A stretch of DNA of 64,000 nt, taken from contig OZ024740.1 in assembly GCA_964016885.1 (NCBI GenBank), positions 44,888,001 to 44,952,000 on the forward strand, written 5' to 3'. The notes under the pieces were generated by a model. That model ran no database searches and had not been told where the DNA came from. It worked only from the letters and a program-made list of their open reading frames with translations. Made by a program: the position numbers and the translations under genes. Origin of the DNA: Eledone cirrhosa (lineage: Eukaryota). Shown here in pieces: positions 29,401 to 64,000 of this stretch. Position 1 is the first letter of the stretch. Each line of letters begins with the position of its first letter.

Positions 29401-32400
29401 TTAAGAATCAATCTCCCACTCACCAAATATAGATTCCACCTCAGAACGCGTTTCTAATGTAAAACAAAATGAAATACAATCCTATCAGTTTGACCATATA
29501 GACAATAGAACCGACACAAACAAATATATTAAGGAATAATTATCTACTGTTTTCCAAATTAGTTATTCTTCAAGAGAAATCAGTGATCCAAAATTATAAA
29601 AGCTTTATAATCTGTAAACGATCTGTGCTTGAAATGAAATTTCCTTCATGAAAAGTATTTAAATAAGGCTGAATAATTATATTTTAGCAAACGAATACCG
29701 CAAGGAATTAGAGATTTAATTACTTTATATGAAACCATATTGGAAATAATTCCATATTGGAAATAACAATTCCAATAGAGTTATTTTTTCGGTTGCAACA
29801 TCTGTGAAATTAACGAAATATTTTACTATATATCGATATTTACTATAGTACCAACTCAATTAATATTTATTTACAAAGCAATTACCACTTAAATAGAGGA
29901 CATCCAAATCCTAGCAGTAATTATCACTACAACATATTTCATCAAGAATGATAATAACAATAACCTCTATAGACATGACAAACCACGATATATCTTTACG
30001 AGAACACCTACTAACTAGAAGAGAACAAATGTTTCAAACGAAAATCAATGCAACATTGTGAAGCGTAAAGCAAATAAAATAGCTTAAACATCTTTTGAAC
30101 GTAAGAATTACTCGGCCGGTGGTTCGGAACCTTCCATTAGACGTGATAATATAACAATTATTTGAAAGTTGTATACAAAGTTCATTGAGGTTTGGCTTGT
30201 GTATTGCGACTTTATGACATTTTATATGGTATATTTATACAAGACGACACAAATGGTTTGTGACATATATCTTATTTTCATGGTCCAGATATAGATGTAT
30301 TAAGTGTGTGACGTTCTGTGCGCGCCTAATGTTGTATGCTGGTACTTGATTGAAATTGTAGGATACATTTAGTTAGCCCTAATTCCTATATGGATGGTTG
30401 CTTATTGTTTCGTATGATTCTACAGGAGGATTTAAATTATCTATCATCTTCATCTCCCTGAGAATCGTGTCATATGTATGCAACCCTGTAGTGATATTTT
30501 CATGTGAAATTTAACGTGGGAGTATGAGTGATTATTATTTTCTGGTACATTTTATTTTAGTTATTGAATACAATCATTATTTGTGTAGATTTTACGTCTT
30601 CCAATTTACCGTTACAGACAAAACAACGACAGTAAAGCCAGACACTGAAAGCGAGTGAATCTATTTCCAAATTAAACTCACCAACTGTAGATTCAACTTC
30701 AGACGGTTTTTCTGCACGAAAATTTAAATAATATACAATAAGGACGTTGCTAAATTATGTTACACAGAAATACACTCTATAATCATATATAATAACATAT
30801 TTATGTTTTCGTACTTTTTCGTAAAATGATATCATTTGATTACTATAAATATACCAGCTGTATTTAACTGGTCGTATCTTTACAGTTGCTGTAAAGATCT
30901 TAAAAACTCTGTATTCATTAGTGAATAATTAAATTAATTTCGAAATATTTCGTAGAATTATAATAATTATACTTTGATAAAACAATCTACCAATATTAAC
31001 CATTATATATACTAGAAGCTGCTTACCTATGCGAGATTCGGTCTGGGTAACAATTTCTGTGAAATTAACAATATTATCAATTAACTATTGTTTTCATCAA
31101 TTCACAAAATAAACAATCCTCATATTAGCTAGTTTCAGCAATACGTATGAGTTAATCCAGAGAGAAATATTTATCAATCAACATTCATATCAATTATCTG
31201 TAACTTAATATTAAATGAATTAATAAACATCTAATATTTAGTGTTAAAGAATACGAAATAATATAGTTAATATTATGGTATTACTACTGATATAAATGAC
31301 AATTGATATAGATTGCAATGCTATAATAGTTGCACTGGTTATAATAATATTGATAATATATTTGATTTGTTTATATATTCTATTTATATATTAAAATGTT
31401 TCAACACTTACCAACTGTGGCTTCCGCCTCAGTAGGTTGTTCTGAATATGGAATAAAAATGTTGCATATTTATCACCAAATACAAACAATATATGATAGA
31501 TGTACGGACACTTTTACGAACTATTTGCGTATCATTATTTTTCTATTTCTACTAGGTGGTGCATAATATTTTCTCTCTCTCTGGCAATATATATATTCAG
31601 AAGCCCAGATAAGTATGGGACGTTGGAAACACATTCCAATTTAACACTCAAAGTGCGACAGGCAATCTAATGAAACAGATATTTATATAAACCAATTTGA
31701 AATGCTTTGTATATGCATTATAGAAGGCCATTTGCACATGAACTTTTAATATCCATATAAATATGCATATAAATAGTTACAAATAACTACGTAAAGTTTT
31801 TTCTAATGTCCTTTTTTCTGCCACAATAGCGGAAATCATATATAATATAGAAATTCTAAACTATAAAACTATTTCGAAATTAGAACCATGCTCACCTTTA
31901 GGACGCTCTTCCTGTGCCATAATATCTGTGAAATTAAATTAATAAAATTGCAACTGATCTCAGGCGTAATATAGAGGTAATAATGTTTTTTCTACTAACA
32001 TAGATATTTCAACGTGTGATCGTATTTGAGATTTAATCATACAAATCGTACTTAATGGAATTGATCACAACTTATTCAATCGAAAATAAATGACACATTG
32101 AAATCGTATATAAATATCATTCCTATAAATAGATTCTTATGGACTGTTACTCTAACATATATTTACTAATGTAACTAGGTAAATATTGTTTATATATGTC
32201 TATAAATATATGCTCGCAATATGATTTTCATCTAACAATATAAAATGCAAGCGATTACACAAGATGATACAACGACATCTTATGATATTCAACGACAAGC
32301 AGAAGCAAGAAATCGTTAAGAATCAATCTCCCACTCACCAACTGTAGATTCCACCTCAGAACGTGTTTCTAGTGTAAAATAAAAGGAAAATACAATCCTC

Positions 32401-35400
32401 TCAGTTTGACCATATAGACAATAGAACCGACACACACAAATATATTAAGGAATTAATTAGGTACTCTTTTACAAGTTAGCTATTCTTCAATAGAAATCAA
32501 TGATCCAAAATTATAAAAGCTTTATAATCTGTAAACGATCTGTGCTTGAAATGAAATTTGCTTCATGAAAAGTATTTAAATAAGGCTGAATAATTATATT
32601 TTAGCAAACGAATACCGCAAGAAATTAGAGATTAAATAACTTTATATGAAACCATATTGGAAATAACAATTCTACATTTAGCTTACCTGTACGAGTTATC
32701 TTTTCTGTTACAACCTCTGTGAAATTAACGAAATATTATATTATATATCGATATTTACTATAGTACCAACTCAATTAATATTTATTGACAAAGCAATTGC
32801 CACTTAAATAGAGGACAACCAAATCCTAGCAGTAATTATCACTACAACATATTTCATCAAGAATGATAATTACAATAACCTCTATAGACATGACAAACCA
32901 CGATATATCTTTACGAGAACACGTACTAACTAGAAGAGAACAAATGTTTCAAACGAAAATTAATGCAACATTGTGAAGCGTAAAGCAAATAAAATAGCTT
33001 AAACATCTTTTGAACGTAAGAATTACTCGGCCGGTGGTTCGGAACCTTCCATTAGACGTGATAATATAACAATTATTTGAAAGTTGTATACAAAGTTCAT
33101 TGAGGTCTGGCTTGTGGATTGCGACTTTATCACATTTTATATGGTATATTTATACAAGACGATACAAATGGTTTGTGACATATATCTTATTTTCATGGTC
33201 CAGATATAGATGAATTATGTGTGTGACGTTCTGCGCGCGCCTAATGTTGTATGCTGGTACTTGATTGAAATTGTAGGATACATTTAGTTAGCCCTAATTC
33301 CTATATGGATGGTTGTTTATTGTTTCGTATGATTCTACAAGAGGATTTAAATTATCTATCATCTTCATCTCCCTGAGAATCGTGTCATATGTATGCAACC
33401 GTGTAGTGTTATTTTCTTGTGAAACCTAACGTGGGAGTATGAGTGATTATTATTTTCTGGTACATTTTATTTTAGTTATTGAATACAATCATTATTTGTG
33501 TAGATTTTACGTCTTCCAATTTACCCTTACAGACAAAACAACGACAGTAAAGCCAGACACTGAAAGCGAGTGAATCTATTTCCAAATTAAACTCACCAAC
33601 TGTAGATTCAACTTCAGACGGTTTTTCTGCACGAAAATTTAAATAATATACAATAAGGACGTTGCTAAATTATGTTACACAGAAATACACTCTATAATCA
33701 TATATAATAACATATTTATGTTTTCGTACTTTTTCGTAAAATGATATCATTTGATTACTATAAATATACCAGCTGTATTTAACTGGTTGTATCTTTACAG
33801 TTGCTGTAAAGATCTTAAAAACTCTGTATTCATTAGTGAATAATTAAATTAATTTCGAAATATTTCGTAGAATTATAATAATTATACTTTGATAAAACAA
33901 TCTACCAATATTAACCATTATATATACTAGAAGCTGCTTACCTATGCGAGATTCGGTCTGGGTAACAATTTCTGTGAAATTAACAATATTATCAATTAAC
34001 TATTGTTTTCATCAATTCACAAAATAAACAATCCTCATATTAGCTAGTTTCAGCAATACGTATGAGTTAATCCAGAGAGAAATATTTATCAATCAACATT
34101 CATATCAATTATCTGTAACTTAATATTAAATGAATTAATAAACATCTAATATTTAGTGTTAAAGAATACGAAATAATATAGTTAATATTATGGTATTACT
34201 ACTGATATAAATGACAATTGATATAGATTGCAATGCTATAATAGTTGCACTGGTTATAATAATATTGATAATATATTTGATTTGTTTATATATTCTATTT
34301 ATATATTAAAATGTTTCAACACTTACCAACTGTGGCTTCCGCCTCAGTAGGTTGTTCTGAATATGGAATAAAAATGTTGCATATTTATCACCAAATACAA
34401 ACAATATATGATAGATGTACGGACACTTTTACGAACTATTTGCGTATCATTATTTTTCTATTTCTACTAGGTGGTGCATAATATTTTCTCTCTCTCTGGC
34501 AATATATATATTCAGAAGCCCAGATAAGTATGGGACGTTGGAAACACATTCCAATTTAACACTCAAAGTGCGACAGGCAATCTAATGAAACAGATATTTA
34601 TATAAACCAATTTGAAATGCTTTGTATATGCATTATAGAAGGCCATTTGCACATGAACTTTTAATATCCATATAAATATGCATATAAATAGTTACAAATA
34701 ACTACGTAAAGTTTTTTCTGATGTCCTTTTTTCTGCCACAATAGCGGAAATCATATATAATATAGAAATTCTAAACTATAAAACTATTTCGAAATTAGAA
34801 CCATGCTCACCTTTAGGACGCTCTTCCTGTGCCACAATATCTGTGAAATTAAATTAATAAAATTGCAACTGATCTCAGGCGTAATATAGAGGTAATAATG
34901 TTTTTTCTACTAACATAGATATTTCAACGTGTGATCGTATTTGAGATTTAATCATACAAATCGTACTTAATTGAATTGATCACAACTTATTCAATCGAAA
35001 ATAAATGACACATTGAAATCGTATATAAATATCATTCCTATAAATAGATTCTTATGGGCTGTTACTCTAACATATATTTACTAATGTAACTAGGTAAATA
35101 TTGTTTATATATGTCTATAAATATATGCTCGCAATATGATTTTCATCTAACAATATAAAATGCAAGCGATTACACAAGATGATACAACGACATCTTATGA
35201 TATTCAACGACAAGCAGAAGCAAGAAATCGTTAAGAATCAATCTCCCACTCACCAACTGTAGATTCCACCTCAGAACGTGTTTCTAGTGTAAAATAAGAG
35301 GAAATACAATCCTATAAGTTTGACCATATAGACAATAGAACCGACACACGCAAATATATTAAGGAATTAATTAGGTACTCTTTTACAAGTTAGCTATTCT

Positions 35401-63989: not shown

Positions 63990-64000
63990 CTGTGAAATTA

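Follow-up and report, generated by a model that had tools for sequence, protein, structure and literature searches.

Can a block of six very small exons be multiplied many times within a gene, introns included, and still serve as coding sequence, and if so, in what kind of gene? The question is raised by a 64,000-nucleotide stretch of the Eledone cirrhosa genome (contig OZ024740.1 of assembly GCA_964016885.1, positions 44,888,001 to 44,952,000 of the forward strand), hereafter called the window and numbered from its first letter. An earlier note on this DNA had described a 2.9-kb six-exon cassette spanning 29,460-64,000, present at least 12 times, with near-identical introns. We find that the window is most likely a segment of one very large minus-strand gene, running off both window ends and holding 99 intact microexons. 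Judged from its sequence, the near-identical block is the latest addition to an older and far more extensive array of microexons, on which purifying selection acts. The array and the six exons of a representative unit (E1 to E6, of two alternating types, A and B, placed according to our exon model) are the following:

29235..64000, minus strand: head-to-tail array whose unit of 2,914-2,916 bp holds six microexons; 11.9 units lie in the window and depth gives about 16
30512..64000, minus strand: near-identical core of the array, mean identity 99.71% among units 3-11 by unit comparison
43069..43098, minus strand: E1, A-type 30-nt phase-1 microexon
42684..42713, minus strand: E2, B-type 30-nt microexon
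42339..42368, minus strand: E3, A-type 30-nt microexon
41429..41458, minus strand: E4, B-type 30-nt microexon
41082..41111, minus strand: E5, A-type 30-nt microexon
40639..40668, minus strand: E6, B-type 30-nt microexon

The spacing of shared 20-mers in the window peaked at 2,915, 2,914 and 2,916 bp. A BLASTN search with one unit as query returned 11 full-length copies at 99.4-100% identity (the query itself included), a partial unit at the right window end (725 bp, 99.7%) and an edge copy starting at 29,235 (1,984 bp, 95.1% to the query unit), which bears out the period of 2914-2916 bp given in the earlier note. In total, 11.9 head-to-tail units lie between 29,235 and 64,000, the array is open at its right end, and identity of 99% or more begins at about 30,512. 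Pairs among units 3-11 differed at a mean of 8.4 positions, corresponding to 99.71% identity or a mean divergence of 0.29%. Across units 2-12, 34 of 2,918 columns were variable, 1 of 180 in exons versus 33 of 2,738 in introns (Fisher p=0.72); the introns are indeed about as identical as the exons, as had been claimed. Neither tandem-repeat calls nor copies of a short interspersed element (SINE) were found inside the core (30,512-64,000). CpG is undepleted in the unit at 41082-43995, with an observed/expected ratio of 1.07.

Each unit carries, on the minus strand, six 30-nt phase-1 exons bounded by AG and GT(A/G)AG, altogether 180 nt or 60 aa. Three A+B pairs make up the cassette; its thirds agree with one another in 9-10 of 20 residues, and autocorrelation of the array-unit protein reaches 28/60 at lags 20 and 40. 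The A-type consensus is E-x-(P/R)-(S/T)-E-(V/A)-E-(S/A)-T-V, and the B-type consensus is (E/D)-(I/V)-V-(T/A), then charged residues. Eleven six-exon sets of the array are intact, and in the twelfth the fourth exon (29,772-29,801) has lost its donor; within the core, every one of the 69 exons keeps its AG/GT sites, of the same kind as in the old selected copies described below. When the 99 intact exons (69 core and 30 older) were joined, five broken or doubtful exons being left out, 990 aa were obtained with 0 stops; the other two reading frames of the joined exons contained 52 and 133 stops. All 99 are in phase 1, and 98 measure 30 nt; the remaining one, an E1 copy of 33 nt at 913-945 (minus strand), has one codon extra and leaves the frame intact. 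Because all exons are multiples of three in the same phase, exon gain, loss and skipping are frame-neutral and each unit can add 60 aa, in agreement with the earlier note as far as the genomic exons go. The dead E4 at 29,772 and the 33-nt E1 at 913 illustrate such neutral changes. No plus-strand exons were found in the window.

Evidence of splicing came from sequencing runs, of which four of the seven listed were mapped as contigs on 24,000-32,338. The feature concerned is:

30712..31026, minus strand: GT-AG intron of 315 nt between E2 and E3, present as a joint in run X4 at depth 166 and absent from runs X1, X5 and X6

The X4 joint runs from 30,711 to 31,027, skips 315 nt with CT..AC ends and coincides exactly with the predicted E2-E3 intron. 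Moreover, three X4 contigs depart from E2 at 31,057 with 12 letters matching E1, X4 depth is highest in bins that bear exons, and over the unit the five listed contigs that span introns (depth 6-20) mostly have both their ends at exons. From this exact joint, the E1-matching ends, the depth peaks and the contig ends at exons, we infer that X4, which is not on record as RNA, is an RNA library. A processed retrocopy was considered as the source of the joint and ruled out, the joint being absent from X1. A second X4 joint, 25417 to 25980, lies in a depth-166 contig with old-type E1 and E3 and unknown letters between them; it fits a spliced older cassette, E3-E4-E5-E6-E1.

The number of copies was estimated from read depth. 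In run X1, the five listed flank contigs had depths of 10.2-16.3, whereas three contigs of the unit reached 205-217 at similar G+C content (0.28-0.32). The unit/flank ratio, taken from single contigs, was 15.5-16.4 (extremes 12.6-21.3), which gives about 16 copies, some four of them beyond the window, and shows that short reads collapse the array into single contigs, as had been foreseen. The deep X1 contigs over the edge copy carried the array consensus allele in 37 of the 37 variant rows listed (read by eye; 52 further rows were unlisted). That an assembler multiplied one to three true copies, the outcome named in the earlier note as refuting, is very improbable. Such an artefact could draw on the fact that all 13 informative sites are biallelic and that a mean divergence of 0.29% could be supplied by two haplotypes, and for the same reason we rejected shared variants as proof of real copies. 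Against it stand the X1 depth ratio of about 16 (from contig depth), the fact that in a second sample, X4, the listed intron-spanning contigs lie over the unit alone, and the background restriction-site-associated DNA (RAD) reads of two other samples. The RAD reads, at a depth below 2, were 5.3x and 2.2x denser over the unit than over the flanks (11 unit bins versus 17 flank bins, two SINE bins dropped); they are too thin for copy number or variation, and hint at a multi-copy state in these other samples. We conclude that the array is multi-copy and not an assembly artefact; with 11.9 units in the window, 11 of them intact six-exon sets and the twelfth missing one donor, and about 16 by depth, the estimate of at least 12 copies was sound.

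The confinement of the cassette to 29,460-64,000 did not hold up. The array is there, and the same six types supply a further 30 intact exons between 531 and 29,453, outside the core and in the same order, down to position 531. The left half of the window divides as follows:

531..23187, minus strand: older six-exon cassettes in unbroken order, with conserved exons and diverged introns, continuing toward the left window end
24540..29234, minus strand: transition zone of partial cassettes 77-89% like the unit by BLASTN, with duplicated, shortened and broken exons
29235..30511, minus strand: diverged array edge, about 93% to the next unit, with the donor-less E4 (29,772-29,801) and a diverged E5 (29,424-29,453)

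When 29 older exons were compared with the array copy, exon identity was 93%, as against 65-66% in the nearby introns (random baseline 52%). The exons showed 35 synonymous differences over 202 sites and 21 non-synonymous over 581 sites, a ratio per site (pN/pS) of 0.21 between paralogous cassettes, from pairs that share one reference and are therefore non-independent. The contrast between exons and introns and the pN/pS value together indicate that the older exons are real and under selection. Partial cassettes with broken exons extend across 24.5-30.5 kb, at 77-93% to the unit. In this zone, an E1 copy at 28134-28163 (minus strand) has an imperfect inverted repeat turned into a perfect 10-bp hairpin whose 4-nt loop is inverted, the pattern left by template switching (quasi-palindrome mutation); it is still 30 nt long and open, with GT next to it. 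At about 25060-25075 (minus strand) an E2 is cut to 12 nt, in frame and with its AG/GT sites intact, and at about 24565-24575 (minus strand) an E3 remnant has kept its donor and lost its acceptor and body.

How did these layers arise? The A+B exon pair (20 aa) was first tripled into the six-exon, 60-aa cassette, as the sequence of its thirds shows. The cassette was then repeated long ago, leaving the old copies with their diverged introns, and one compact 2.9-kb cassette was later multiplied to the roughly 16 copies seen by depth. The most likely route for this last step would be unequal crossing-over together with conversion between copies. Four observations argue for it: in a four-gamete test 39 of 78 site pairs were incompatible, so that the copies are mosaic; each of units 2-11 differs from all the others; units that lie farther apart are more diverged (rho 0.40, from non-independent pairs); and the edge units, which are less homogenised, retain older alleles. 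The near-identity of the introns reflects youth and homogenisation, not selection on introns. The proposal of recent or ongoing expansion or concerted evolution made in the earlier note is consistent with these mosaic copies, which are young relative to cassettes whose introns are about 65% identical.

The block may also have spread neutrally or selfishly as a satellite, most new copies being skipped, in which case the protein would not gain 60 aa per copy. Introns and exons being equally alike, no selection is visible on the young copies themselves; the broken exons beside it show that an exon can be lost, and short reads are unable to count identical exons in mRNA. We nevertheless hold this to be improbable: the core exons without exception keep splice sites like those of the old selected copies, and consecutive exons are joined in X4.

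What, then, might the gene encode? The product is an acidic chain rich in Glu, Thr and Val (25%, 16% and 15%), with a net charge of -9 per 60 aa. The array unit is without C, W, F, Y, L, G, N, H and M, and its FoldIndex of -0.17 predicts disorder; S+T+P amount to 30% and P+E+V+K to 49.6%. It would most likely act as a stretchable spacer within a giant structural protein inside the cell. By analogy, an I-band spring of the titin/connectin family is the single likeliest identity, at somewhat less than an even chance. In Drosophila titin, P+E+V+K is 52.4% in PEVK-2, close to the 49.6% found here, with another value of 58.5%, and it is 70% in human (PMC2185597). Another giant intracellular linker, of the giant ankyrin, MAP/futsch-like, nesprin or obscurin type, might have the same structure and expansion. 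An acidic, disordered, T/S-rich chain with no aromatics or Cys fits such spacers, and so does its low P and K content. Such spacers, however, are usually encoded by one giant exon. The elastic part of titin spreads over many exons and undergoes alternative splicing (PMC2185597, PMC9142044), and we regard a linker of this kind as a tentative second possibility.

Blocks of this sort are known from human muscle genes. The PEVK region of TTN contains a segmental duplication of exons 172-180, 181-189, 190-198 and 203-204 (PMC9142044). Here too, a few-kb multi-exon block is repeated in tandem and in frame within a low-complexity, Glu/Val-rich part of a giant gene and is hard to assay by short reads. 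TTN, however, has three copies of nine exons and demonstrated copy-number variation, whereas the array has six 30-nt microexons in each of about 16 copies, and its P+E+V+K content is 50% as against 70%. In nebulin, the repeats are structured and bind actin. The human NEB triplicate region comprises 8 exons x 3 over about 30 kb (PMC9142044). It resembles the array in being a block of several exons, nearly identical between copies and lying within a gene, that determines protein length through the number of its copies, and differs in its unit of about 10 kb and its three copies, compared with a 2.9-kb unit, more copies and a predicted disordered product here. The array thus works like the titin and nebulin blocks, and its gene may belong to the titin family.

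A secreted or surface protein would be a different solution, either with symmetric microexons serving variant pools, as in the schistosome micro-exon genes (MEGs), or with a spidroin-like repeat and homogenised introns. The exons here are indeed very small and symmetric, S+T+P reach 30%, and phase-1 modules are common in extracellular proteins. MEGs have tiny symmetric exons, signal peptides and high dN/dS, and apparently are restricted to flatworms (PMC4350168). Like them, the gene has a coding region of mostly very small symmetric exons (98 of 30 nt and one of 33 nt, phase 1) in which in-frame skipping is possible. Unlike them, it has uniform 30-nt exons, a fixed order of six types and at least 990 aa, and pN/pS is 0.21, the mark of purifying and not of diversifying selection (among paralogues here, from orthologues in MEGs). 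In Argiope MaSp2, exon-intron repeats have introns homogenised to a mean of 97.6% identity within the gene, and unequal crossing-over has been proposed (PMC9779670). Homogenised introns, alternating intron types and less similar edge introns are common to both; the spidroin has one or two long exons per unit, encodes a secreted silk and is homogenised along the whole gene, whereas here each unit has six exon and six intron types, and next to the homogenised block lie old copies of its cassette that have not been homogenised. A chain with 25% Glu and no Cys or Gly is moreover unlike mucins and silks, and we consider a secreted product unlikely.

The intragenic repeat of LPA encodes kringle IV-2, a folded two-exon domain. 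It shares with the array a kilobase unit with exons, copies in the tens and collapse in assemblies, whereas here the unit is a microexon cassette with a predicted disordered product. Exon-bearing macrosatellites have been defined and shown to collapse in assemblies, LPA and SPDYE3 being named among them (PMC4063668). The array has the make-up of an exon-containing intragenic macrosatellite, with a head-to-tail unit longer than the 100 bp minimum (2,914-2,916 bp, 11.9 units) and spliced in-frame exons within it (two of six junction types in X4).

All together, a layered gene with recent unequal crossing-over in the elastic or spacer region of a giant protein is the best explanation overall, and we think it probable. 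Several points weigh against it. P and K amount to about 5% each and T+S to 24%, unlike vertebrate PEVK; the window, off both ends of which the gene runs, yielded no exon recognised as Ig, FN3 or kinase. A protein search with three exon-centred 40-aa stretches gave 119 candidates, none with E<=10 (proteins of 71-2,000 aa searched). The two junction types seen among the joints listed (a further 196 joint rows were unlisted, the SINE filling the list) come from one run, which shares its study with X1, and with a likeness of 90% the X4 junctions are not assignable to young versus older cassettes. X1 is possibly the assembly's own sample, and the tool that reports contig depth warns against reading summed depth as copy number. 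Taken alone, mosaic biallelic sites could stem from haplotype chimerism, and both the pN/pS and the distance tests use non-independent pairs.

A profile search of 1.84 billion representatives found no repeat protein, a blank that probably reflects library content, annotated proteins of this lineage being apparently scarce there to judge from best matches of 46-47% to the Penelope-like fragment described below; in controls, at least 240 aa of exact repeat were detected even within 6,000 aa, while short or diverged cases were missed. The sole profile match was a 64-aa open reading frame (ORF), a genomic E3 copy read into its introns and not present in the window. Two Logan ORFs, P0001 and P0002, are such 64-aa E3 microexon read-throughs, about 60% like the old copies of the window, and by their sequence would stem from another cassette, either beyond the window or belonging to a relative. 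A 40-aa exon-centred stretch had no usable match in the ESM Atlas, and an exon-plus-donor motif had 0 matches in metagenome contigs versus 26 in the window. In the literature searched, supplementary tables (which could bear on identity) lying outside the search, no report of this locus or of such an array in cephalopods was found, and the available parts of PMC12198301, PMC11703226 and 10.64898/2026.09.05.749416 held nothing on this locus. A Pfam scan of 3 of the 58 listed ORFs returned retroelement domains only.

Inserted elements lie among the older cassettes and in the transition zone:

11078..13618, minus strand: non-LTR retroelement ORF with RVT_1 and C-terminal C2H2 fingers, 846 codons open, in an old E3-E4 intron
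8592..9758, plus strand: Penelope-like retroelement fragment in the same old E3-E4 intron, relatives at 32-47% identity
27024..27196, no strand assigned: high-copy interspersed repeat, SINE-like; old introns hold three more copies (86-87%) and a partial one

The retroelement ORF at 11078-13618 is probably a recent 5'-truncated insertion. Among relatives of the Penelope-like fragment, 2 of 98 carry PF01541 (GIY-YIG). The old introns also hold microsatellites. With 30% GC, many microsatellites and a resemblance to SINEs, the DNA looks like that of an octopod; the Penelope-like ORF was of no help in placing the lineage of the host. The longest of them (7782-16489, 2470-5658 and 18894-20324; 8.7, 3.2 and 1.4 kb) are all E3-E4 introns, the array E3-E4 intron being 0.88 kb, and both retroelement ORFs and three SINE-like copies are located in two of these three.

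Intragenic amplified blocks are known from titin and nebulin, and the surprise here is one of degree. What sets this locus apart is the combination of microexons of a uniform 30 nt, six types of exon and of intron in each unit, many copies and a gradation in age within one gene. This one gene displays successive stages in the growth of a repeat protein, from selected old cassettes through a broken transition zone to a freshly amplified block; with these stages at a single locus, rates of unequal crossing-over, homogenisation and microexon loss become measurable. The copies are about five times as many as those of the titin triplicated block and consist wholly of 30-nt exons, which annotation pipelines often drop. 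If the product is a titin-type spring with variable copy number, the array would allow a direct test of whether block number tunes muscle mechanics outside vertebrates. A bolder idea, which we consider rather unlikely, is a giant titin-like spring whose length is set both by an actively expanding, population-polymorphic 60-aa block and by the in-frame skipping of single 10-aa microexons out of well above 100. If this were true, a soft-bodied animal could tune its muscle stiffness both by inheritance and tissue by tissue, in steps of 10 residues, through a region that standard annotation and short reads overlook.

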